Part shown: positions 7,615-61,814 of the stretch, piece after piece
How the letters are laid out: every line of letters begins with the position of its first letter
How positions within the stretch are numbered: the first letter of the stretch is position 1
Assembly: GCA_046351325.1 (NCBI GenBank)
Contig: JAXLYR010000002.1
Span: 496,334-560,333, forward strand
Direction of reading: 5' to 3'
DNA: 64,000 bases
DNA from: Polyangiaceae bacterium
GTDB lineage: Bacteria > Myxococcota_A > Polyangia > Polyangiales > Polyangiaceae
Position numbers and translations under genes: made by a program
Notes under the pieces: generated by a model
What the model was told of the DNA's origin: nothing
The model's database searches: none
What the model saw: only the letters and a program-made list of their open reading frames with translations

Positions 7615-8733
7615 ATGGATTGTCCAAGGTTGAAAATGGGCAAACCCATCACTGGCGAGCACAGCGAAACCCTGGATGCTGGGGTCGTCCGTGCGTCTGG
7701 CGAGAGCTCGGGCGGCGGGCCTATGTCCCCGCGAGACCTCATCGCGCTCCAGGCGGGTTGTGTCGTCGATGGGCGGTATCGGCTCATTCGGTTTCTCGCC
7801 GAGGGCGGGATGGGGCAGGTCTGGGTCGCCGAGCATACGAGCCTCGAGCGTCTCGTGGCGCTCAAGGTCGTCGCAGTCCCATCCCCCGTCGTGCGTGCGC
7901 GTGTCCTGCGAGAGGCCAGGCTGCTCGCGGCGCTGCATCACCCCGCTGTCGTCACCGTGTACGACTGCGGTGATCTCGACCGGCAATATCGGGCCTTCGA
8001 CGGCGGCGGGCAGCCGCTCCGTGGCGCGTACATCGCGATGGAGCTCGCCTCCGAGGAGACCCTCGAGCAGCACCTCGCCGCGCGGGGCCCGCTCCCGGCA
8101 AAAGACGCAGTCCAGCTGTTGATCCCTGTGTTGGACGGGCTCGCGGTCGCGCATCGACAGGGCATCATCCACCGCGATCTGAAGCCTTCGAACGTCGTGG
8201 CGAGGCGCGCATCGACCGGCGCGCTCGAGGACGCGAAGCTCCTCGACTTCGGAATAGCGCACGTGGAGCGCGCCGCCCCGAGCACGCTGACCGCCGTCGG
8301 CGGCGTCATCGGAACACCCCAATACATGGCCCCCGAGCAGATCGCGGGTGGCGTCATCGGGCCACACACCGACGTGTGGGGCTTCGCGCTGACGCTCCTC
8401 GAGCTCGTCACGGGTAAGCCGGTTTGGGACGCGCCCGAGCCGAGCTCGGTCATGGCGAGGATCCTCGGCGTGCCCCCCACGCGCCCCGACCCGAGCCGCG
8501 TCGACGCGAGCCTCTGGGCGATCCTCGAGCGCGCTATTGCCAAGTCGCGCGAGGAGCGGATCGGCTCGGTCGTCGAGCTCCGTGAGCGGCTCGTGCGCTG
8601 GTCAGCGGCGAGCCCGAGCGTCGTGAACACGCAACCGTCTCCCCGCGCTTCGGCGCTCGACGCGCTGGATACGACCGACGACGCGCCGCCGTCGCTCGAC
8701 GAGCTCATTCGCAAACGATTCCAAGACAACTGA
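7615..8733 (+). CDS. Ser/Thr protein kinase, Hanks-type
   Basis: Gly-loop AEGGMGQVW, VAIK-like VALKVV, HRDLKPSNV, DFG and APE (YMAPEQ) motifs are all intact. An alternative start is the ATG at 7636. The gene ends 10 bp before the PYP gene. Confidence 0.85.
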   Translation: MDCPRLKMGKPITGEHSETLDAGVVRASGESSGGGPMSPRDLIALQAGCVVDGRYRLIRFLAEGGMGQVWVAEHTSLERLVALKVVAVPSPVVRARVLREARLLAALHHPAVVTVYDCGDLDRQYRAFDGGGQPLRGAYIAMELASEETLEQHLAARGPLPAKDAVQLLIPVLDGLAVAHRQGIIHRDLKPSNVVARRASTGALEDAKLLDFGIAHVERAAPSTLTAVGGVIGTPQYMAPEQIAGGVIGPHTDVWGFALTLLELVTGKPVWDAPEPSSVMARILGVPPTRPDPSRVDASLWAILERAIAKSREERIGSVVELRERLVRWSAASPSVVNTQPSPRASALDALDTTDDAPPSLDELIRKRFQDN

Positions 8734-8743
8734 GGAGTAGGAA

Positions 8744-9814
8744 ATGCTCGAGCTGGATCCGCAGATGCCCCCGCCGTCGTCGTCGTTCGACCCCGCGCGC
8801 ATCGACGAAAAGCCGGACTCCGAAATCGACGCGCTGCCGTTCGGGGTCATCGCGCTCGACGCCGCCGGCACGATCCTCCGATTCAACCTCTACGAATCGA
8901 GGCTCGCGCGGCTCGATCGCAACCAGACCCTCGGGCGGAACTTCTTTCGCGAGGTCGCGCCGTGCACGCGCACCGAGACCTTCGAGGGGCGCGCGATGCG
9001 GCTGCTCTCCCACGGCGCGGTCGGCGAGACCGAGTCGTTCGAATACGTGTTCGCGTTCGCGTTCGGCGAGCAGCACGTCAAGGTCGAGATGTTCGTGCCG
9101 TCCCCGGGGCGACTCTACCTATTCATCAATCGCAAGAGCATCCGCAAGACTCGGATGCTCGGTGACGACGTCCCGCTCGCGGTCGAGCAGCGCGCGCTCG
9201 CGCCCGACGAGCGATCGCTCGGTGTTCGGCGCGACGAGCTCGAGCGGCGCGCCGTCGATGTCCCGGCGCCCTTCTTCGCGGCGCTCCGCGCCACGTGCGA
9301 TCGCGTCGCGCCCGAGAGCTGGCAGCTCTTCGCCTCCGAGTGGGGAGTTCAGTGGGGCCGACGCGTGGCCATCGATTTGGAGGCTTGGGCGACCGAACAA
9401 GGCGAGCCTGCGCTCCGCGAGATCCCCATGCGCCGCGTCGCCGAGCTCGTATCCCGATATTTCTCGGACCGCGGCTGGGGTATGCCGCTGTTCGACTTCG
9501 GTCGCGCCGCCGAGGGCATCGTGGCCATTTCGGTCGAGCGGAGCGCGCTCGCCGAGACGAGCTCGTCCGCGCGGATCGGTCGCGGCCAGGAGCTCTCTTG
9601 CCATTTGCTGGCCGGTAGCTTCTCGGGCGTCTTCACCTATCTCGGCAATCGGCGCTTGGCCGTGCGTGAGGTCGCGTGTCGATCCGCGGGCGAGCCTGTC
9701 TGCTCGTTCGTCGTCGTCTCCCACGATCGCAGGACGACGGTCGACAAAGCTCTGCGAGCCGGCGCTCGCGGCATCGAGAGCATCCAGAACGCCTTGCGGC
9801 GCACGCCGAGCTGA
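8744..9814 (+). CDS. Photoactive yellow protein (PYP) domain fused to a C-terminal putative effector-binding module (XylR_N/V4R-like)
   Basis: Residues ~27-125 align without gaps to Halorhodospira PYP (LAFGAIQLD..ILQYN..GKNFFKDVAPCT vs LPFGVIALD..ILRFN..GRNFFREVAPCT). Cys69 and Glu46 are conserved. The C-terminal part has a CxxxG...C...G...C pattern (ELSCHLLAGSFSG...ACRSAGEPVCSFVV) reminiscent of V4R. Confidence 0.85.
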   Translation: MLELDPQMPPPSSSFDPARIDEKPDSEIDALPFGVIALDAAGTILRFNLYESRLARLDRNQTLGRNFFREVAPCTRTETFEGRAMRLLSHGAVGETESFEYVFAFAFGEQHVKVEMFVPSPGRLYLFINRKSIRKTRMLGDDVPLAVEQRALAPDERSLGVRRDELERRAVDVPAPFFAALRATCDRVAPESWQLFASEWGVQWGRRVAIDLEAWATEQGEPALREIPMRRVAELVSRYFSDRGWGMPLFDFGRAAEGIVAISVERSALAETSSSARIGRGQELSCHLLAGSFSGVFTYLGNRRLAVREVACRSAGEPVCSFVVVSHDRRTTVDKALRAGARGIESIQNALRRTPS

Positions 9815-10110
9815 GGTCGCCAATGGACAGCTCCTTCCTCTTGTCCTCGCGACGCGAGAGTGACAACGCGGTAAGCGAAGCGCGGCTCGGCGGGCGCGAC
9901 CTCGTCGTCGGCTGGGCGGGTGACTGGCCACCCGGCGCGTCGGCGATCGAGGTGCTCGACGCCGTATCCTGGAGTGGCCGCGCCCCGGACCCGGAGAAGC
10001 TCGGGGCCCTCGACTTTCTGTCGTACTTGTTCGGCGCCTAGGTCCCGGGGGCTCTCCCGACGGCCGCCGTTGACGCGCGCGGGACACTTTCTACGCTGGC
10101 GAGAGCTCCT

Positions 10111-10980
10111 ATGCCGACGCCGCGAGTTGCTTCCCTCCTGCTGGTCATGAGCCTTCCCCTCGCGGTCGCGTGCGCGGAGGGCGACACCCTGAACGCTGGC
10201 GGCCACGCCTCGGGCGCTGCTGGCGGCGGCCCTCCGACGAGCGGGGGCGGCGGCGCGGGCGCCTCGTCGTTCGGGGGTGATGGTCAAGGTGGTTCACCAA
10301 CTACGACGAGCTCCTCGTCGAGCTCCTCGAGCTCGAGCAGCTCGTCGAGCAGCACCTCGAACGGTGGCGCAGGCGGCGGGCCCGCCTGCTCGGAGCAGCC
10401 CTGCAAGCTCACAGAGCCGCAGTGCGGTTGCGACCCGAACCAGCAATGTACGGTCGACGCGAGCGGACGCTCCTGTATCCCTGAGGGCAGCGTCGCTTGG
10501 GGGCAGCCCTGCACGGGCAACAACTGCGCTCCCGGACTGCTCTGTCTACAGACCACTCCGACCGAGGCCACGTGCGGCAAGTTCTGTGACTCGGACTCCG
10601 ACTGCACTGCACCCGGCGGGCTCTGCATTCTCACGCTCAATGACGGCTCTGGCGGCGAGATCCCGAACGTCACGATGTGCACGGACAACTGCAACCCGCT
10701 CAACAACCTCGGCTGTGCGGTAGGGGGTTGTCAGATCCTGACGGAGTCTATGGGACTGATGCGGTCTCTCACGCTCTGCGTGGACGCTGGCGCGGGTACG
10801 CAGGGGGCGGCCTGCGTCGGCAACGAGGACTGCGCGCCGACCTTCGGGTGCTTCAACGACGGCATCAGCGATCTCTGCTTGAAGTGGTGCAATCTGGCGG
10901 CGCCGAGCTGCCCCGCCGCGACCACCTGCCTGGACGTGGCGGTGTCGCTGGGCGGGATCAACTATGGGGTCTGTTACTGA
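10111..10980 (+). CDS. Cys-rich repeat secreted lipoprotein with a 17-residue poly-Ser tract
   Basis: Lipobox LAVAC. A Gly-rich tether is followed by S17, then repeated C-x-D-x-D-C and CxxxC modules (about 30 Cys) resembling myxobacterial Cys-rich repeats. Confidence 0.7.
   Translation: MPTPRVASLLLVMSLPLAVACAEGDTLNAGGHASGAAGGGPPTSGGGGAGASSFGGDGQGGSPTTTSSSSSSSSSSSSSSSTSNGGAGGGPACSEQPCKLTEPQCGCDPNQQCTVDASGRSCIPEGSVAWGQPCTGNNCAPGLLCLQTTPTEATCGKFCDSDSDCTAPGGLCILTLNDGSGGEIPNVTMCTDNCNPLNNLGCAVGGCQILTESMGLMRSLTLCVDAGAGTQGAACVGNEDCAPTFGCFNDGISDLCLKWCNLAAPSCPAATTCLDVAVSLGGINYGVCY
10309..10359 (+). repeat. Homopolymeric Ser codon tract (17 x AGC/TCG) inside the CDS
   Basis: The nucleotide run agctcctcgtcgagctcctcgagctcgagcagctcgtcgagcagcacctcg encodes S17. 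Confidence 0.8.
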
Positions 10981-10992
10981 CGTACGTGTCTG

Positions 10993-11994
10993 TCAGTTCA
11001 AGATCTCGACCGCGCTCGCCGCGAAGTCCGCGCTGACCTCCGTCGAGTCGGTGCAGCCGCCAGCCATGTCCGTGGTGGAGCACCAATCACCCTTGAAGAG
11101 GATCACGTTGTTCGCGTCGCGCTTGCATTTCATCGTAGGGGCTTGGCCGTCTCCATAGGTCGTCGCGTCACCACTCAAGAGGACGCAGAGGCTCTGGTGA
11201 ACGGCTGCGATCTCGATTGTGTCCGCGTTCTCCAAGGTGATGTACGCGTGCACGTGGCCTCCTGGGACGAACGCGCTCACCACGTCGGTCGGCTGGCAAG
11301 AATCGCCGGGGCTGAGACCAGCGCTGTTGTAGAGGCCAATGCAGTTCTTGTCGGCGGAGAGTGTGCTGTCATCGAATTGCAGCTTGGATAGGGGCATGAG
11401 GAGGGGCTGGGTCGCCCCGTCGTCGAGGTAGAGCACGAGCGGCAGATCGACGCCTACCCCGGTCGCGAACGCGCCACTTGCATCCGGCGTCGCGTCGAGC
11501 ACGACCGGGTGAACGGTCACGTTGCCGACAGTCTCGTTATCGACGAAGGAGTAACCCGCGGAGGGATCCGCGACGGGTTTGGCGCCGCCCGTCTTGAGTG
11601 TGTGCGCGGCTGTATCGAACTGCATGAGCCAGCTGAACGTGCCAGTCCCAGGGAGATTGCAGCTCGCGAGCTTGGGTAGCGCGCCGCCGCTCAGCGTCCC
11701 ACCCACGATCCCAGCCGCGAAGGCCGATGGCTTCTGGAAGGTTACCTGCGACATCCGCAGGCCGAACTTCGTTGCGCCGTCATTGTCGGTGAGGCTGATG
11801 CAGTCGTGGCCCGCGTCGCAGCTCGCCTTTGGACTGCAGGGGTAGCTGCCGCCAGTCCCGACGCCGCCGCCCGCTCCCCCGGTGGCGCCGCTAGCGCCGC
11901 TGCCGCCCGCTCCCCCGCTGCCGTCGTCGCCGCACGCGCCGAGGACCCCCACGATCGCGATCACCCCTGTCAGACCCGAGACCCTTAAACTCAT
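10993..11994 (-). CDS. Hypothetical secreted lipoprotein
   Basis: Starts at MSLRVSGLTGVIAIVGVLGAC-GDDGSG with AGGAGG 8 nt upstream. A Gly-rich tether follows. The remainder looks beta-rich. Confidence 0.65.
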   Translation of the reverse strand: MSLRVSGLTGVIAIVGVLGACGDDGSGGAGGSGASGATGGAGGGVGTGGSYPCSPKASCDAGHDCISLTDNDGATKFGLRMSQVTFQKPSAFAAGIVGGTLSGGALPKLASCNLPGTGTFSWLMQFDTAAHTLKTGGAKPVADPSAGYSFVDNETVGNVTVHPVVLDATPDASGAFATGVGVDLPLVLYLDDGATQPLLMPLSKLQFDDSTLSADKNCIGLYNSAGLSPGDSCQPTDVVSAFVPGGHVHAYITLENADTIEIAAVHQSLCVLLSGDATTYGDGQAPTMKCKRDANNVILFKGDWCSTTDMAGGCTDSTEVSADFAASAVEILN

Positions 11995-12115
11995 CGGCGA
12001 TGCCTCCTGGCTCGATCGAGCCTTCGAACAAACCGCCAACATCGCACGCTCCGGCGCGCCTCGTCACGGGTCTTCTTGCCAATCTTCGTGTAGATGGTAT
12101 TACGCTGATAAAGTA

Positions 12116-32168: not shown

Positions 32169-33063
32169 GGAACGTCGTGATGGGTCTACACCGATCCCGC
32201 ACGGGCCCCCACCATCCTCCCTTCAAACCCGCGCGCTTGGAGAAACCCTTGTTCGGGAGCGCGACCCACTCGTTGACGTTGCCGTTGAGGTCGTGGACGC
32301 CCTCGGGCGAGACGCACTCCGCCATCTTCCCGGTCTCGACGCGCTGGTCGACGACGAAGAGGGCGAGCCGACACGCGAAGTCCGCGAGGCAGGCGTCGTG
32401 TTTCGGGAAATCGTAGGTGCGCAAACGATATTTGCGATCGAACCAGCATTTCTTCGGGTCTCTGTCGAAGCCCGTGACGTGCGGCCGCATCTCCTCGCCC
32501 TCGCAGGCGAACGTGAACTCCACGTCGGTGCAGAGGCGCTTGCCGATCCCCTCGCACCTGTCCTTCGCCTCTTGCCAGCTCGTGAGGTTCCTCGGGATGA
32601 CGCCGGGCCGGTTCGGCCACTCGTAAGTGTCCATGCAAAATCGCATCGGCTCGCGCTTCGGGGAGAGGCATCGCGAGGGGCTCGCGAACCGGCGACACTG
32701 CGATTTCTCGACCACTCCGAGCGCGTGCTCGGCCGCCGCGGCGTCGGGGTCGGGCGGTGAATACGAGGTGCAGACCTGTTCGACCGCGGGGCAGTAGTCA
32801 CCCGCGACGAGCCGCATGTCCAACGGGCACGCGACGCCGGGCGCGCCGCGCTCGTTCGCGCTCGGTGCCCCGCTCGCGCTCGGCCCCACGCTCGGCCCTG
32901 TGCTCACCGAGGCAACGACGAGCGACGCCGCTCCGGTCGCGGACGCGGCGGGCGCGGAAGCGCTCGCGCTCGCCGTCGAGCTCGGGCCGCTCGACGAGGG
33001 AGCGCTGCAGGCGTGGAGCAGAGCCGCGAGCGCCGCGAAGAGCGTCGCCCTCGCGGCCCTCAT
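32101..33063 (-). CDS. Formylglycine-generating enzyme (SUMF1/FGE) family lipoprotein
   Basis: Lipobox LLHAC. FGE-domain motifs GVHDLNGNVNEWV, GGWW and GFRCC. Its stop overlaps the fadD-like gene by 4 nt. Confidence 0.8.
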   Translation of the reverse strand: MRAARATLFAALAALLHACSAPSSSGPSSTASASASAPAASATGAASLVVASVSTGPSVGPSASGAPSANERGAPGVACPLDMRLVAGDYCPAVEQVCTSYSPPDPDAAAAEHALGVVEKSQCRRFASPSRCLSPKREPMRFCMDTYEWPNRPGVIPRNLTSWQEAKDRCEGIGKRLCTDVEFTFACEGEEMRPHVTGFDRDPKKCWFDRKYRLRTYDFPKHDACLADFACRLALFVVDQRVETGKMAECVSPEGVHDLNGNVNEWVALPNKGFSKRAGLKGGWWGPVRDRCRPITTFHGESDYGYEVGFRCCKDAASGG

Positions 33064-34841
33064 CCCTCAGTGTATTGCGCGTCGATCTGCGCGCCGTAGC
33101 GCTGCACGGCGACGCGACGCTTGAGCTTCAGGCTCGGCGTGAGAAGGCCGTTCTCCACGGTGAAATCCTCGGGGACGATGACGACCTTTTTGATGTCCTC
33201 GAAGCCCTTGAACTCCTTCGCGTACTTGTCGACCTCGCTCTTCATGTGCTCGACGACGCGCGCGTCCTGGATCAGGGCCTCGGGCGACGAGGTCGTGATG
33301 CCGTGTTGCTCGGCCCAAACCTTCAGGTTCGGCAGGTCGGGCGCGACGACGACGATGTTGAACGCGCGGTTGTCGCCATAGACCATGCAGTTCGCGATGA
33401 ACGGCGAGAGCTTCAGCTTCTCCTCGAGGGGGGCGGGCGCGACGTACTTGCCGTTCGCGAGCTTGTAGAGCTCCTTCAACCGGCCGGTGATGTAGAGGAA
33501 ACCCTCGCCGTCGACGTAGCCGAGATCCCCGCTCCTGAAGCCGCCGTCGTCGGTGAAGACGGCCTTCGTCTCGGTCTCGAGCTTGTAGTAGCCCTGCATC
33601 ACGTTGGGGCCCGAGATCACGATCTCCCCGTCCTTCGAGTCGGGCGAGGTCTGCGACTTGTCGATGGTGATCTTCACGTCCTTGATGGCCTTGCCGACGC
33701 TGCCGATGCGGTGCGCGCCAGGGCGATTCGCGGTCGCGATCGGGCTCGTCTCGGTGAGGCCGTAGCCCTCGAACACCGTGATGCCGATGTTGTCGATGAA
33801 CTCGGCGACCTCGCGCGAGAGCGCCGCGCCCCCGGAGAACGCGTACTTGAGCCTGCCACCGAGGCGCGCGACGACCTTCGAGAAGACGACCTTCTTCGCG
33901 ATGGGGTACGAGAGCGACTCGAAGAACGTGGGCGTCTCACCGCGACGTCGCTTGTTCGCGCAGCTGAGCGCCGCCGCGACCATCTTCTGGACGAAGGCAG
34001 GGCGCGACGCGATCTGCTTGTTCACGTTGTCGTAGACGCGGTTGAAGATGCGCGGGACGGAGAAAAGCAGGGTGGGGTGAACCTCGCTGAGGTTGTCGAT
34101 GATCTTGTCGACGGCCTCGGCGAGGGCGATGCTCGCGCCGCGCGAGAGCATGCTGTGCAGCTCGCACGTGTGCCCGAACGAGTGCGCCCACGGCAAGAAC
34201 GAGAGGCTGCGATCGTCGGTGCCGATCGGCAGCATTTCTTGAACGGCGTTCACGTTCGAGATGATGTTGCCGTGCGAGAGGATGACGCCCTTCGGGTTGC
34301 CGGTCGTGCCCGAGGTGTAGATGAGACACGACGTGTCCTTCGGCTCGGGGTCGATGCTCTTCACCGGGCTCTCGCGACCCTTCGCGCGCAGGGCGCCGAA
34401 GCTCTCCGGGTCGCTGTCCGGCAGATCCATCCCGATGATGTTCTGCACGGTCGGGACGGCCTCTTTCAGCTTCTTGCAGCCCTCGTAGGCCTTGGGTGTG
34501 CCGGCGACGAGCATCACCGCGCCGCAGTCGTTCACGATGTACTGCCACTCGCTCGGCTTCACGGCCTCGTACATGGGGACGAGCGCTGCGCCGAGGCCGT
34601 AGCAGGCGTACGCGAGCACGGCCCACTCGAGGCGGTTGTTCGCGACGACCGCGACGTTGTCCCCGCGCTTCACCCCGAGCGCCGCGAGGCCGCCGCGCAC
34701 CTCATCGACCATCTTGCCGACCTCGGTGAACGACGTCCAATGCCAGACGCCGTTCTTCTTCGTACCGAAGAGCGGAGAGCTGCCGTACTTCTTCACGGAC
34801 TGCTCGAACATGTCGACGAGGTTCTTGAACGGCTCGGCCAT
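33060..34841 (-). CDS. fadD: Long-chain fatty-acid--CoA ligase (AMP-binding, FadD-type)
   Basis: AMP-binding box IYTSGTTGNPKGV. EGYGLTE and the C-terminal …LTPSLKLKRR are typical of FadD/FACS. Confidence 0.9.
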   Translation of the reverse strand: MAEPFKNLVDMFEQSVKKYGSSPLFGTKKNGVWHWTSFTEVGKMVDEVRGGLAALGVKRGDNVAVVANNRLEWAVLAYACYGLGAALVPMYEAVKPSEWQYIVNDCGAVMLVAGTPKAYEGCKKLKEAVPTVQNIIGMDLPDSDPESFGALRAKGRESPVKSIDPEPKDTSCLIYTSGTTGNPKGVILSHGNIISNVNAVQEMLPIGTDDRSLSFLPWAHSFGHTCELHSMLSRGASIALAEAVDKIIDNLSEVHPTLLFSVPRIFNRVYDNVNKQIASRPAFVQKMVAAALSCANKRRRGETPTFFESLSYPIAKKVVFSKVVARLGGRLKYAFSGGAALSREVAEFIDNIGITVFEGYGLTETSPIATANRPGAHRIGSVGKAIKDVKITIDKSQTSPDSKDGEIVISGPNVMQGYYKLETETKAVFTDDGGFRSGDLGYVDGEGFLYITGRLKELYKLANGKYVAPAPLEEKLKLSPFIANCMVYGDNRAFNIVVVAPDLPNLKVWAEQHGITTSSPEALIQDARVVEHMKSEVDKYAKEFKGFEDIKKVVIVPEDFTVENGLLTPSLKLKRRVAVQRYGAQIDAQYTEG

Positions 34842-35033
34842 CGTTGTTCTCCCGGGGTTCTTCCTGGACTGAGCGTCCGGCGTCCAACGGGCGCACCCGA
34901 GAAGGGAGCTCGCCCGCGTGTCGGTGAAGCGGGCCGATTTCTATCAGCCTCTTTCCCCCGGCGCGACAGTCGAACGCCCGCCTGTCGATGATTCTTGCAA
35001 ACTTCCGCGCGCGACGATTGTCCAACGCCGAAC

Positions 35034-43049: not shown

Positions 43050-46077
<3,028 letters not shown>

Positions 46078-56333: not shown

Positions 56334-59174
56334 CTACGCGAGCGACGGGACCGCGTCGTTCTTCGCGAGCTCGACGCTCGCGCCGGGGACGGTCGTGGCC
56401 CAGGCACGCGCCGCGTCGAGCACGCGCGCCGAGGTCACCCTGTCGAGCAGCGAGACGTCGCCGAGGCCGATCGCGAGCTTCACGCACGCGCGAGTTGCCT
56501 CGAACGGCCGAGGCCAAGCGCGAGCACGTGCGACGCCCGCGCGATCGAGCGCGCCGAGCAACGCGAGGGCGCGACCGCGCGCCCAGCCGAGCGACTGCGA
56601 GACGCTGCCGTCGCGTGTGGCGCGCAGCGTGACGACGAGCCAGCTCGCGTGGCGGCGGTGCAAGGGTGGGGGAGTGAAGAGGCGCTCGACGTCGCCCGTG
56701 GACGCGAGCTCCCAAGCCTCGAAGAGCTCCTCGGTGAGGGTCGCGACGCCGCACGCAGGGAGCGCAGCGGACATCGAGCGCGTGGGCGCGGTCGGAGTGA
56801 GCACGCCCGTGAGCTCCGCGGCGACCGCGCGTTCGAGCGCGACGGGCTCACGAAAATCCCAGCCCGCCCAATGGGCGAAGAAGCCCTCGAGCCGCGGGTT
56901 CGAGCCGGGCGTCGCGGCGACCATCACGAGCCACGCGAGGCTCGGGAGCGTGCCGAACGCGGCGCTGTCGAGCCCTCGCGCGCGGGCCCAGCGCTTGACG
57001 AGGCGCGCGAGCTCACGGAGGTGAGGTTCGCGCTCGAAGAGGGCGGCGAGCGCCTCGGCGTCGCTCACGGCGCTGAGCGCGAGCGCGGCAGGCTCTGCGA
57101 GCTCGAGGCGGCGCGCGACCGCTTCGGAGACTGCGAGCGGCGCGCAGTCGACGAGCGCGAGATCCACGTCGAGCCCGCTCGCGAGGGAGAGCTCGAGGCC
57201 GGGGACGCGCGCGCCGACGATGTGGCGCGGGGGCTCGCGGAGCGCGAGCCCGCTCCTCTCGAGCGCGGCGGAGACGGACTCTGCGACGCGGTGCGGATCG
57301 AGGTCGCGGCCTGTGGCGACGAGATCGAGATCGCTGTCCGCGAGCGCGCAGTCGAGCGCCTGCGAGCCCGTCACGAACACGCCTGCGTCGGGAAGGCCCG
57401 CGCGGATCACCTCCGCGACGCGGGTCGCGCTGACCGAGGCGCGCAGCGTGGACGCCGAGGGTCGACAAAGCCCGGCCCGACAAAGTCCGGGTCGCTCGTC
57501 GAGCCACGTGAGGCGAGCGCGAGGCCCGAGCTCGAGCCTCGCCCGAGACTCCATCGGACCGCCCGCGCGCGATGACAAAAATGTAAGCTCGCGCACCGCG
57601 AGCGGCTGCGACGTGAAGGCCCTGGCGACGGGCGCGACGGCGGAGAGCTCGCCGCGGCCGAGCGTGAGGTGCGGGGAGCTCTCGGCGCGCGCGCGGCACG
57701 CGGGCAAAGGCGCGCGCAGCAAGGCCGTGAGCTCGCGCCAGCGATCCGCAGGGAGCGCGGGCAAATGCACGGTGGGCGCGCCCTTGTCGTGTTCGAAAAT
57801 CGCGGGCTCGCCGAGGGTCGCGTCGAACGGCGCGACACGCCGAGCCTCGTCGAGGAGCAGGCGCGCTGCGGCCTCGAAGCTCGACTCGGGGACGAAGCCG
57901 AAGACGACGTTGACGTGAGGTGGCCAGCGGCTCGCCTGCGGATCGTGGAGCGCGCGCGTTCGCTCGATCGCGGCGCAGGCCTCGGTCGGTGGGAGCCACG
58001 CGAGCGCGGTGCTCGCCGTGGACGGGAGCTCGAGCGTCGCGCGCGCCTCGAGCGGCGCGAGATCGGCGACGACCGCCCCGTGATCGGACGCGAAGAGGGG
58101 CGGAGCACCGGGCTCGATCGGCTCGGTGGCGGCGAGCTCGGCGCGCTTCACGGTGAGCTCGCGCGAGGTGAAGAGCACGCGATCGAGGCGGCGAGCCTCG
58201 CCCGAGAGCGACGAGAGCGCGGCGAGCGTGTTCGCCGTCGGATCGAACGTCGCGCCGTCGCCACGCGGATCACCGAACACGCGCTCGGTCGAGGTCCACG
58301 CGTCGGCGAGCCCGAGGCTCGCGGCGAGCTCGGGATCGCCGTCGTTGAAATCGCCCGCGACGATGACGTCGCTCGAGAGCGACGCGATCGCGGAGGCGAG
58401 GAGTTCGCGCTCGCGCCGCCGATGCTCGCGCGCCTGCTCGCGGTGGTCGCTGCTCAGGTGGAGCGCGACGAAGGCGACGCGGCGCGGAGGCGCGGCGCCG
58501 CCCCATTCGATCACGGCGGCGACGAGCGCTTTGTGGCTCTTGCGCGCGCGCGGCCCATCGGCGCCGAGATCGCGGTAGCCGAGCTCGAGGATGGGCCACC
58601 GGCTGAGCAGCACGAGGCCACATTGTTCGACGTCGTCGCGCGAGGGACCCACGTGGTAACGCGAGCGCACCCAGCCCGCGCCGAGCAGCAGCTCGAGGAG
58701 CGGGAGCTCGACCTCTTGAAGCGCGATGAGATCCGCGTCGAGCCCTTCGAGGAGCTCGAGCTGATGGGGCCGGCGACGCTCGGTCGCGAGCCGATCGGCG
58801 TCGTAGCGATCCCACAGCGTGTTCCACGTGACGACGCGGAGCTCGCCGTTCGACGCGGGCGCCATCGCCGTAGGCTCCGGCGACGCGAGCACGACGCGAG
58901 GCTCGAAGAAGGTCTGGAGCTCGAGCTTCGCGCGAGCGCGGCCTGCTTCGGTGCGATCGAGGATGTCGAGGCCCGCGCGCCGATCCCACACGGTGACGCC
59001 ATCGGCTTCGAACGCGACGACGCGATGCCACGGGATGTCCCCGCCGGCGACGAAGTCGCTGAACGCGACGCGCTTCAGCGACGCGCCGTGCACGTCGAGC
59101 CCGATCGTGAACCGCGCGGCGTCGAGCGAGGCGTCCCACCGGATCCGGTTGTAAATCTCCTCACTGGTCCGCAT
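56334..59174 (-). CDS. Multidomain putative RNA end-processing/repair protein: MJ1316(DUF504)-like, EEP nuclease/phosphatase, 2H phosphoesterase-like, pol-beta nucleotidyltransferase
   Basis: N-terminus MRTSEEIYNRIRWD…IPWHRVVAFEADGVTVWDRR (MJ1316-like). EEP motifs VVTWNTLW, ALQEVE, AGDFND and FASDHGAVV. 2H-like HVNVVFGF and HLTLGRG. NTase GVFVTGSQALDCALADSDLDLV. The start was moved to 59174, giving a 14-nt overlap with the upstream gene. Confidence 0.8.
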   Translation of the reverse strand: MRTSEEIYNRIRWDASLDAARFTIGLDVHGASLKRVAFSDFVAGGDIPWHRVVAFEADGVTVWDRRAGLDILDRTEAGRARAKLELQTFFEPRVVLASPEPTAMAPASNGELRVVTWNTLWDRYDADRLATERRRPHQLELLEGLDADLIALQEVELPLLELLLGAGWVRSRYHVGPSRDDVEQCGLVLLSRWPILELGYRDLGADGPRARKSHKALVAAVIEWGGAAPPRRVAFVALHLSSDHREQAREHRRRERELLASAIASLSSDVIVAGDFNDGDPELAASLGLADAWTSTERVFGDPRGDGATFDPTANTLAALSSLSGEARRLDRVLFTSRELTVKRAELAATEPIEPGAPPLFASDHGAVVADLAPLEARATLELPSTASTALAWLPPTEACAAIERTRALHDPQASRWPPHVNVVFGFVPESSFEAAARLLLDEARRVAPFDATLGEPAIFEHDKGAPTVHLPALPADRWRELTALLRAPLPACRARAESSPHLTLGRGELSAVAPVARAFTSQPLAVRELTFLSSRAGGPMESRARLELGPRARLTWLDERPGLCRAGLCRPSASTLRASVSATRVAEVIRAGLPDAGVFVTGSQALDCALADSDLDLVATGRDLDPHRVAESVSAALERSGLALREPPRHIVGARVPGLELSLASGLDVDLALVDCAPLAVSEAVARRLELAEPAALALSAVSDAEALAALFEREPHLRELARLVKRWARARGLDSAAFGTLPSLAWLVMVAATPGSNPRLEGFFAHWAGWDFREPVALERAVAAELTGVLTPTAPTRSMSAALPACGVATLTEELFEAWELASTGDVERLFTPPPLHRRHASWLVVTLRATRDGSVSQSLGWARGRALALLGALDRAGVARARAWPRPFEATRACVKLAIGLGDVSLLDRVTSARVLDAARAWATTVPGASVELAKNDAVPSLA

Positions 59175-60939
59175 CGTCGTCGAGCCCCCCGGTGCTGTCG
59201 GTCGCCTCGGCGGCGCCGTCACGAGCCGCGGCCGCGCGATAGACGAGGCGGTCTGCGTCGCCTGGAAACGGCGGGCGACAGCGCGCGATCTGTTCGTCGA
59301 GGACGTCGACGGGGACCGCGTGTGCGCGGGTCGCGTTGCGCGCCCCGAGCAGCGCGCGCGGCGTGAGGAAGACGACCTGCCAGACCTGCGCGCCGAGGCG
59401 ATGCGCGACGCTCTCGGGGAGCTTGCGCTGCTGCGGGATCAGGCTGGTCGCGTCCCAGATCACGTCGCGCCCGCTCGCGAGCGCGCCGTGCAGTTTCTCG
59501 AGGGCCTCCCCGAGGACCGCGGCGTTCTCCGATTGATCGGCACGCGCACCGCGGCTCTCGCGGAGAGCGTCGAGCGCGATGACGACCGACGGGCGCTCTC
59601 GCGTGTCGCTGGGGTCGTGCGCCGCGAGCGAGCTCTTGCCGCTGCCCGAAGGGCCCACGAAGAGCGTGAGCCGCGGGCGGCGCGCGGAGCGCATGCGAAA
59701 CGTCGCTTGGATCGCCTCCGGCGCGCTCACGAGGGCGCCGCGCACCCAACCCGATCGGGCCTCGGCCCAGCACTGCTCGGCGATGCGCGCGTCGGCCATC
59801 GCGTGGATGCCAGCGAACTCCGCGCGAACCGCGCGGCGGAGCTCACCGATCGGCTCGCGCGCGAGCAGGCCGTGCTCCTCGGCGAGGAGCTCCGACCACG
59901 CGATCGCGTCGACGGCCTGCGCGTCGCTCGCGTGCGCGGCGCGAGCGACCGCGTGCGCGACGCCGAGGTCTGCGCCGAGCGACATCCAGCGAAGGCCGCG
60001 CGGCGTGGGGTTCTCGGGTTCGGGCGACGCGATCTTCGGCGCGAGCGCTGCGACGTCCGCGATGCGTCGCGCGAGCCGCGGACCGAGCGCGACGGCGAGC
60101 TCCATCATGAGCTCGCCGCGTGGCAGGTCGGGGAGGAGCGCGGCGAACGCGGCCTCGACGCGCGCGTCACCGAACCGGCCGAGGGCGTCGAGCCCTGCGT
60201 GAACTGCGGAGAGTCGCGTGTCGTCCGCTTCACGAGGAGGTCGCGCGAGCGTCGGGGGCAAGAGGTCGAGGAGCGTGCGCGCGGGCACGAGCTCACCGCC
60301 GCGCGCAGCCCAGAGCGCGGCGCGCGGACCGCGTTCATTTTCGATGAAGGGCCCGCGCATCCAGTGCTCGTCGGTCTGGACGTGGTCGCGTCGAACCCAC
60401 TTCGCGACGCTCGCGGTGAAGTCGTCGCGCGAGAAGCCGCTCGCGAGCCGAACGACGTAGCCCTCTTGTCGCGCCGGATCGATCTTCAGGCGGCGGAGCG
60501 CGTTCTCCTGGAATACACCTCGAAAGAGGACGGGTGGCGTCGGCAACCCGAGGTCCGCGGCGAAGCGCACGGTCTCGTCCCACGAGAGCGCGTCGTCACC
60601 GTTCCAGACGCTGAAGGCATAGAAGAAGCTCTCGAGATCCGCGTACGCGATGGAGTGCCGCGCGTGGACGTTCTCACCCGAGATGCGGAAGCCCGCGGGG
60701 ATGCGATCGCGGATGCGCCCGTGCAGGGCCTTCACCCAGGCGCGCGACGGGTGGTGCGCGGAGTCCGGCGAGCGCGCGTGGAGCCCGTCGGAGTAGAGCG
60801 TGGTGTTCTCTCCGTCGAGCTTCTCCGTGACGACGACCTCGCGGCCTTTGAAGCTCGCGAGATCGACAAGCCGGACATCGTCCGCGGTCGCGCCCGGCGA
60901 CCATGGCAGGTGCGGGGTTCGAGGGTAGCGGACTCGCAT
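59161..60939 (-). CDS. RNA ligase (ATP-dependent, KxDG nucleotidyltransferase) fused to P-loop polynucleotide-kinase-like domain
   Basis: N-terminus YPRTPHLPWS…VVTEKLDGENTTLY (motif I). EGYVVR (motif IV) and AKWVRRDH (motif V). The C-terminus has Walker A FVGPSGSGKSS and the AAA_33/Pnk-like VIWDATSL. Confidence 0.8.
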   Translation of the reverse strand: MRVRYPRTPHLPWSPGATADDVRLVDLASFKGREVVVTEKLDGENTTLYSDGLHARSPDSAHHPSRAWVKALHGRIRDRIPAGFRISGENVHARHSIAYADLESFFYAFSVWNGDDALSWDETVRFAADLGLPTPPVLFRGVFQENALRRLKIDPARQEGYVVRLASGFSRDDFTASVAKWVRRDHVQTDEHWMRGPFIENERGPRAALWAARGGELVPARTLLDLLPPTLARPPREADDTRLSAVHAGLDALGRFGDARVEAAFAALLPDLPRGELMMELAVALGPRLARRIADVAALAPKIASPEPENPTPRGLRWMSLGADLGVAHAVARAAHASDAQAVDAIAWSELLAEEHGLLAREPIGELRRAVRAEFAGIHAMADARIAEQCWAEARSGWVRGALVSAPEAIQATFRMRSARRPRLTLFVGPSGSGKSSLAAHDPSDTRERPSVVIALDALRESRGARADQSENAAVLGEALEKLHGALASGRDVIWDATSLIPQQRKLPESVAHRLGAQVWQVVFLTPRALLGARNATRAHAVPVDVLDEQIARCRPPFPGDADRLVYRAAAARDGAAEATDSTGGLDDDADQ

Positions 60940-60995
60940 GGCGGCACTCTCGACGGCTCGATGACGAGCAGGCTGACGACCTCGGAAACGAAGAC

Positions 60996-61814
60996 TCAGG
61001 TTTGGATTCGCCGCTCGACCCTGCCGCCGCGCAGCACGGCGATCTCACCCTCGGCCATGGGCTCCCAGGGCTCGTCGCTGAGCGGCACGCTCGCCGCGAG
61101 CGCGACCTCTTGCTCGTCCGCGTGCTCGACGGAGACCCCGACGAGCGGGACGCCGTCCGCGGCCGCGCTGCACGTGCGACAGAGCAAATGCAGGCCTGGC
61201 GGGCGCATGGTGCCGTCGGACTGCGTTCGCTTGTGCGCGTGGGCGATGATCAACTCGCCGTCGCTGTAGAGGAAGTTCGCAGGCCCCAGCGTCCGAAGCT
61301 CGCGCGCGAACGGCGCGAGGCGCTCGAGGCGTGCGTCGAGCGCAGGCAGCTCGTCGCGACTGCAAGCTTCGTAGAGCGGCGCGAGCTGCTCGAGCAGCGC
61401 GCAGAACGCGTGCTCCGAGTCCGTCTCACCAACGGGTCGAAAGCGGCGCGCGGGGAAGCGCGCGTCCTGTTCGATGCCGGGCACCATCCCGTTGTGCGCG
61501 AACACGTGCATGCGACCGCCGAGCTCGCGCGCGAAGGGCTGCGTGTTGCAGAGCCTCGGCTTGCCCTGCGTGGCCTTGCGCACGTGCGCGATCGTCAGCG
61601 TCGCGCGCGGCTGGTACTCCTCGAAGAACTTCACCCAGCGGCTGTGCGCCGCGGCCTCGGGCGCGCGATGGATGAGCACGTCGCGATCGTCCGAGAGGCT
61701 CAGCCCCCAGCCGTCCGCGTGGGGGCCCGTCTCTCCGCCGTGCCGCGCGAGCTCGTCGAGCGAGAGCCGTACCGTCGTCGGATGCCGCGCCGCGATCGCG
61801 AGGAGCTCGCACAT
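60996..61814 (-). CDS. Class II (Ntn) glutamine amidotransferase-like protein
   Basis: Begins MCELLAIA, the catalytic Cys2 of class-II GATases (YafJ-like). Confidence 0.75.
   Translation of the reverse strand: MCELLAIAARHPTTVRLSLDELARHGGETGPHADGWGLSLSDDRDVLIHRAPEAAAHSRWVKFFEEYQPRATLTIAHVRKATQGKPRLCNTQPFARELGGRMHVFAHNGMVPGIEQDARFPARRFRPVGETDSEHAFCALLEQLAPLYEACSRDELPALDARLERLAPFARELRTLGPANFLYSDGELIIAHAHKRTQSDGTMRPPGLHLLCRTCSAAADGVPLVGVSVEHADEQEVALAASVPLSDEPWEPMAEGEIAVLRGGRVERRIQT

Follow-up and report, generated by a model that had tools for sequence, protein, structure and literature searches.

We examined a photoactive yellow protein (PYP) gene in a 64-kb stretch of DNA from a Polyangiaceae bacterium (hereafter the window, meaning the whole stretch of 64,000 nucleotides, 68% G+C). 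The gene, at positions 8744..9814 of the plus strand, encodes a 356-residue protein in which a PYP domain is followed by a V4R domain. This PYP-V4R protein probably belongs, as an ordinary representative, to a family of myxobacterial blue-light sensors that has been described before, and among its pocket residues only the phenylalanine in place of Tyr42 of Halorhodospira halophila PYP is truly atypical. A first-pass annotation had described the pocket as divergent, with Tyr42 to Phe, Thr50 to Ala and Arg52 to Leu substitutions. Part of that description holds, in that Phe42 is uncommon within the subfamily to which the protein belongs, whereas Ala50 and Leu52 turned out to be the family consensus. 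The divergence had been overstated because H. halophila PYP served as the sole reference.

The PYP domain and its chromophore pocket

The open reading frame (ORF) has a G+C content at third codon positions (GC3) of 0.86, and its product matches Pfam PAS (PF00989, residues 25-97) and V4R (PF02830, residues 276-325), both above the gathering score. Its translation contains AGTILRFNLYESRLARLDRNQTLGRNFFREVAPCT, positions 8744-9120 make up its first 125 codons, and the minus-strand ORFs that overlap it are the usual artefacts of high-GC DNA. The protein is 100% identical to a database entry from a Polyangiaceae bacterium metagenome-assembled genome (MAG), P0001, which NCBI names 'V4R domain-containing protein' and which is encoded on a 1.14-Mb contig. 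A total of 317 database homologues were found. For family comparisons we used a subfamily set of 120 full-length homologues, the 119 database members of which share 49-63% identity with the window protein, and a species-level set of PYP-V4R loci from GTDB representatives, with one genome per species. An AlphaFold2 (AF2) model of the whole protein, built with 97 homologues, had a predicted local distance difference test score (pLDDT) of 92.5 and a predicted template modelling score (pTM) of 0.87.

The PYP domain spans residues 20-130 (8801..9133, plus strand) and was recognised by profile, sequence and structure alike. The TIGR02373 profile (photo_yellow) matched residues 20-130 over profile positions 14-123 of 124 (E = 4.6e-24). 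In a phmmer search of the PDB, every significant match was a PYP (E from 1e-15 to 3e-17); the best was the PYP domain of R. centenum Ppr (E = 3e-17), and H. halophila PYP and its mutants followed at ~1e-15. Residues 22-129 aligned with residues 17-123 of H. halophila PYP, ungapped from residue 22 to approximately residue 90-95, and within this ungapped stretch a window residue carries the H. halophila number plus 5. Foldseek superposed the PYP domain of the AF2 model on 2PHY, 1MZU and 1F9I with TM scores of 0.86-0.90 and deviations of 1.6-2.3 Å over 112-121 columns. The model also places N-terminal cap helices at residues 17-22 and 25-29, ahead of the PAS core.

The codons of the pocket positions in question were read on the plus strand. 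Phe47, equivalent to Tyr42, is encoded by TTC at 8882-8884, as read directly from the sequence. Glu51 (GAA, 8894-8896) corresponds to Glu46, the proton donor and hydrogen-bond partner, and Cys74 (TGC, 8963-8965) to Cys69, the thioester site of the chromophore; both are present in 120/120 members of the subfamily. Ala55 (GCG, 8906-8908) takes the place of Thr50 and is alanine in 120/120, Leu57 (CTC, 8912-8914) takes the place of Arg52 and is leucine in 114/120, and Arg56 between them (position 51 in H. halophila, within 8906..8914) is arginine in 120/120. Tyr50, which precedes Glu51 (the pair spans 8891..8896), stands at Ala45 of H. halophila PYP and is tyrosine in 113/120. Ungapped sequence, family and structural alignments agreed on these assignments, so that the substitutions read in the first-pass annotation, and the retention of Glu46 and Cys69, are confirmed. 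The register around position 42 is anchored by the aligned Gly37, Asn43 and Glu46, and a gapped alignment that would shift Tyr50 to position 42 was excluded, as all three types of alignment are ungapped there. Nor can a gap restore Tyr42, since 119 of the 120 homologues carry tyrosine in the very column of Phe47, in agreement with the AF2 superposition.

The rest of the pocket is conventional. Ile31, Phe62, Val66, Ala67, Pro68 and Phe96 are all canonical in the window protein, and these six, together with Glu46 and Cys69, vary little or not at all within the subfamily. The suggestion that the protein might bind a different hydroxycinnamate found no support in the sequence: the residues lining the ring are canonical, and Phe98 and Phe100 of the window protein are typical of the family.

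The closest known systems are the PYP-V4R fusions of Myxococcota, which resemble the window protein in phylum, in length (~360 residues), in the N-terminal PYP and C-terminal V4R order, and in a common pocket signature of Glu46, Ala50, Leu52 and Cys69, perhaps with Tyr45; the window protein differs from them by Phe42. This architecture is already known: 20 PYP-V4R fusions, with PYP always N-terminal, have been reported and described as two input domains without an apparent relay domain (PMC12826048, J Bacteriol 2025), and 'PAS:V4R' entries are present in the data set of 2022 (PMC9664959). H. halophila PYP (P16113; 2PHY) has the same fold (TM 0.86, root-mean-square deviation ~2 Å, 32-34% identity) and shares Cys69, Glu46 and the hydrophobic pocket; unlike the window protein, it is a stand-alone protein of 125 residues with Thr50 and Arg52, and TAL and pCL genes lie adjacent. 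The Ppr PYP domain (1MZU; TM 0.90, 38% identity) is likewise N-terminal in a multidomain protein but has Tyr42, Ser50 and Arg52, and its fusion partners are a bacteriophytochrome and a histidine kinase instead of V4R.

PYP-related domains also occur in other, unusual settings. P0121 is a chemoreceptor of 1174 residues with four tandem PYP domains, and in P0237, a DSP-type protein phosphatase, the PYP domain is C-terminal. P0124, of 4799 residues, contains 27 PAS-like repeats with Trp42 and Ala46 and no Cys69.

Phenylalanine at position 42

A published survey of 984 PYPs found H. halophila PYP to be unrepresentative at positions 47, 49, 50, 52 and 97, with a consensus of Ser47, Leu49, Ala50 and Leu52 (PMC12826048). 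The stretch E-S-R-L-A-R-L of the window protein is an exact match to this consensus. We also ran a full HMMER scan with the PYP domain against 1.84 billion representatives, which returned 933 matches, and took as a family sample the 153 Cys69-bearing domains from the best 150 of these 933 proteins. Ala50 was present in 98/153 and Leu52 in 97/153 of the domains. Given these frequencies and those in the subfamily, neither Thr50 to Ala nor Arg52 to Leu counts as divergence; at Ala55 and Leu57 the window protein simply has the ancestral or consensus state of PYPs, to which no special meaning attaches.

Position 42 behaves differently. The window protein is the only one of the 120 close homologues with Phe42, and at the species level phenylalanine was found at 1/84 PYP-V4R loci and tyrosine at the other 83. 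The TTC codon is a single base away from TAC. Across PYPs as a whole the substitution is more common: natural Y42F has been put at ~9% of PYPs, spread across both clade A and clade B (PMC9664959), and at 8.9% of the 984 surveyed (PMC12826048), and the published definition of a PYP admits Phe42 members if Glu46 is retained (PMC12826048, PMC9664959). Our family sample gave a similar frequency (15/153 domains, ~10%). Two further PYP-V4R-type proteins with Phe42 were found, P0129 (354 residues) and the fragment P0136. The closest relatives of both are Tyr42 proteins and not the window protein; Phe42 therefore arose at least three times within the PYP-V4R architecture. As a separate observation, the 132-residue PYP homologue P0231 combines Phe42, Gln46 and Cys69 (ILAFNAAQQELGRR...APCT), and Y42F and E46Q are said never to co-occur in one Cys69-containing PYP (PMC9664959).

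The tyrosine three residues after Phe47, pointed out in the first-pass annotation, was considered as a compensating hydrogen-bond donor and ruled out. Tyr45 occurs together with Tyr42 in 113/120 homologues and shows no enrichment in PYPs with a natural Phe42 (4/15 vs 31/137 in the others, p = 0.75); it is a clade trait and not a replacement donor. We also ruled out relaxed selection on a decaying gene. Of 93 columns conserved to 95% or more, the window protein deviates at three (Y47F, V62T and A301G), where the family maximum is five, and by the number of deviations in the PYP domain it comes 6th to 8th among the 120, within the family range; the intact ORF and its GC3 speak for the same conclusion. 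At less conserved columns the window protein is unique in F79A and D97A.

What Phe42 might do can be judged by analogy with H. halophila PYP, whose Y42F mutant shows a red shift and a 446/400 nm equilibrium (PMC12826048). In the crystal structure of this mutant (1F9I), in which the engineered Phe42 is the counterpart of the natural Phe47, Thr50 takes over the lost hydrogen bond (PMC9664959). Such a rescue is impossible in the window protein because residue 50 is alanine (Ala55). In addition, three of the four characterised Ala50 PYPs show a second band at 358-375 nm (PMC12826048). From these comparisons a spectral or pKa effect of Phe42 with Ala50 is plausible, and a larger protonated, UV-A/violet-absorbing population is a reasonable prediction for a Phe42/Ala50 protein.

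In the photochemistry that we propose, p-coumaric acid would bind as a thioester on Cys74, and Glu51 would hold the phenolate as the sole hydrogen-bond donor left. Blue or violet light would isomerise the chromophore, Glu51 would then protonate it, and the resulting conformational change would be relayed onward. Phe47 is a lineage-specific, conservative, single-base substitution that would remove one of the two hydrogen bonds to the phenolate. By the H. halophila Y42F precedent, we would expect the main band to be modestly red-shifted, the protonated population absorbing near 360-400 nm to be larger and the photocycle to work.

The V4R half and a conserved gene cassette

The C-terminal half carries a V4R-type small-molecule sensor domain similar to those of MopR, PoxR and DmpR (residues ~165-345; 9236..9778, plus strand), as assigned by Pfam V4R (43 bits, against a gathering cut-off of 31), Foldseek and a family profile. 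With the C-terminal 200 residues, Foldseek retrieved the phenol sensor domains 5KBE, 5FRU and 6IY8 (E ~1e-7, TM score normalised to the target ~0.65). A single-sequence search of the PDB with the V4R half gave no significant match. A profile of the C-terminal family, searched against the PDB, aligned Cys286, Glu309, Cys312 and Cys320, which are invariant in V4R family alignment A2, with C155, E178, C181 and C189 of MopR, which form the MopR zinc site. The pattern Cys-x22-Glu-x2-Cys-x7-Cys is common to the window V4R, to MopR, PoxR and DmpR and to the archaeal V4R protein MJ1460 (2OSD), all of which are alike in fold, and by sequence it marks a putative zinc site. Identity to these proteins is only 13-19%, and the window V4R differs in that no AAA+ or DNA-binding output follows it. 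The presumably zinc-containing V4R domain would probably add a second, small-molecule input or serve as a coupling module. The PYP chromophore is itself a phenol, and the V4R ligand might conceivably be connected with the supply of chromophore.

Immediately upstream of the PYP-V4R gene lies a gene for a Hanks-type Ser/Thr kinase of 372 residues without a sensor or membrane domain (7615..8733, plus strand; Pfam Pkinase, E = 1e-37). Its stop codon is 10 nt from the PYP-V4R ATG; the NCBI product (P0270) is given as 336 residues, which would place the start at 7723. The catalytic motifs Lys84, HRDLKPSN, DFG and MAPE are present in the window kinase, and 50 orthologues keep all of them and have no additional domain. 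Downstream, a small conserved ORF of 72 residues (9823..10041, plus strand) begins 8 nt past the PYP-V4R stop and belongs to no Pfam or NCBIfam family. Its C-terminal motif, W-x-G-x(3)-DP-[DE]-x-L-x-A-x-x-FL, is shared with genes of 59-71 codons downstream of PYP-V4R in five long contigs.

This arrangement is conserved. Kinase, PYP-V4R and small gene occurred in the same order and on the same strand in 5/5 long contigs examined. The kinase adjoins PYP-V4R at 49 of the 79 GTDB loci with enough upstream sequence (L001-L037 and others), including essentially all closer relatives (Polyangiaceae, Byssovorax, Sandaracinaceae, some Kofleriaceae and Haliangiales), and the distance from kinase stop to PYP-V4R start has a median of 2 nt across loci. 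A regular-expression scan found the small-ORF motif downstream of PYP-V4R at 35/86 loci across Polyangia; a few kinase-less loci of Archangium and Holophagaceae have it too. The kinase and PYP-V4R genes are naturally fused in one case, the Sandaracinaceae protein MBK6808286.1, which supplement file 1 of PMC12826048 lists, without discussing it, as Pkinase-PAS_4-V4R. Such fusions were absent from the 51 loci that we screened for them, and the best 120 matches of a homologue search with the kinase were generic kinases, none with a V4R domain. The main texts of PMC12826048 and PMC9664959 tie no Ser/Thr kinase to PYP and do not discuss the cassette.

PYP-V4R has no output domain of its own, and its gene appears to be translationally coupled to the upstream kinase and the downstream small protein. 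Given a PYP-V4R without an output and a sensor-less kinase coupled to it, kinase regulation, through protein-protein contact with PYP-V4R, would be the most likely output. Going by synteny only, the most economical reading of a sensor-less kinase beside an output-less sensor is that the kinase carries the PYP-V4R signal onward. We propose, tentatively, that PYP-V4R of Polyangia may be the light (perhaps ligand) subunit of a three-gene module with a Ser/Thr kinase as output and a partner of 60-70 residues, and that Phe42/Ala50 may offer a test case for a shifted dark state.

The genes that follow the cassette, at 10111-10980 (plus strand) and 10993-12042 (minus strand), encode probable secreted proteins with no Pfam family, the former with a long poly-Ser tract and rich in cysteine; neither gene is kept beside PYP-V4R at the other loci examined. 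Further away, 43053-45971 (minus strand) encodes a multihaem cytochrome of 973 residues (Cytochrome_C7, MtrC/MtrF-like) with paired CXXCH motifs and an N-terminal portion that is in part PKD-like and in part collagen-like. The Minicystis PYP-V4R locus (L001) likewise has a gene for a multihaem cytochrome in its vicinity, probably by coincidence. At 56337-61044 (minus strand) are two large adjacent genes with RNA-repair-type domains: a protein of 1034 residues has MJ1316 RNA cyclic-end recognition, Exo_endo_phos and 2',5'-RNA-ligase-family domains, and one of 627 residues has RNA ligase and AAA_33 kinase-like domains.

Alternative readings and implications

Several observations weigh against an ordinary PYP photosensor with a kinase output. 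The more distant PYP-V4R genes, in the Archangium/Corallococcus/Holophagaceae branch, have no adjacent kinase. The 12 studied PYPs in Table 1 of PMC12826048 include no PYP-V4R, no natural Phe42 PYP and no myxobacterial PYP. The TIGR02373 score of 84.9 bits falls short of the NCBIfam equivalog cut-off (143.05 bits) despite a full-length match; the model was built on only four seed sequences, and the data set of PMC9664959 likewise flags PAS:V4R proteins as '< cutoff'. As to chromophore supply, the 64-kb window contains no TAL/HAL-type lyase or pCL gene; its only AMP-binding enzyme (33063-34940, minus strand) was considered as a pCL and rejected as FadD-like. A regular-expression scan for the methylidene-imidazolone (MIO) motif of TAL/HAL and the AMP-binding A3 motif, covering 5 kb on each side of 85 loci (L001-L085), found 0 matches, at a sensitivity that is unknown. 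Finally, Phe47 is known from one MAG assembly, without an independent copy.

The low profile score and the missing supply genes, together with the likeness of the V4R half to phenol-binding sensors and the lack of any PYP-V4R among the studied PYPs, could be taken to mean that the PAS domain is no p-coumarate photoreceptor and that Cys74 and Glu51 serve another ligand or hydroxycinnamate, possibly by way of V4R. We consider this improbable. The PYP-defining pocket residues are canonical and (nearly) invariant across the subfamily, and every significant PDB match is a PYP. Non-adjacency of TAL and pCL is weak evidence because only 10-30% of pyp genes have either gene next to them (pCL adjoins ~30%; PMC9664959) and ~70-90% do not; there is a small probability that PYP-V4R domains are loaded differently. 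Still less credible is that Phe47 stems from a mistake in assembly or consensus calling, or from a minority allele in the MAG population, with TAC (Tyr) as the true codon. The difference is one base in a single assembly, and a second copy was found neither in the Joint Genome Institute (JGI) metagenomes, where a 41-nt exact-match query, its variable base set to N, gave 0 matches, nor in the contig index searched for P0001. However, the contig is 1.14 Mb long and the gene otherwise clean, and the same Tyr-to-Phe change recurs in two other PYP-V4R lineages and in ~10% of PYPs.

More probable than either of these, but in our view still unlikely, is adaptive spectral tuning, by which Phe42 and Ala50, with Glu46 as sole donor, would give a markedly raised pKa, a UV-A/violet dark state or altered kinetics relative to the Tyr42 relatives. 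The strong perturbation of H. halophila Y42F, the loss of the rescuing Thr50, the second band already seen in Ala50 PYPs and the unique F79A and D97A changes all fit such tuning. So does the tendency of natural Phe42 PYPs towards Ser/Thr50 (7/15 vs 30/137 in the others, p = 0.053), which the window protein does not follow. Yet Phe42 is a singleton on a terminal branch and not fixed in any clade, its combination with Ala50 is not special (7/15 natural Phe42 PYPs have it), and the deviations at conserved sites stay inside the family range. We therefore favour the reading of an ordinary PYP-V4R sensor in which Phe42 is a recurrent and conservative variant.

For the pocket itself the stakes are small: the comparison shows that H. 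halophila PYP as the only reference inflates divergence, and that the natural Tyr42 to Phe change recurs. A Phe42/Ala50 protein such as this one is nevertheless a reasonable target for spectroscopy, as the 12 PYPs listed as studied include none with a natural Phe42, and if the proposed module is real, the pocket of the window protein, in which Glu46 is the sole donor, would lend itself to testing for a shifted dark-state equilibrium. The cassette is of wider use than Phe42, since the kinase and the small protein are concrete candidates for the missing output of PYP-V4R. If that holds, light-regulated Ser/Thr phosphorylation would be a route of PYP signalling that the main text of neither survey discusses.

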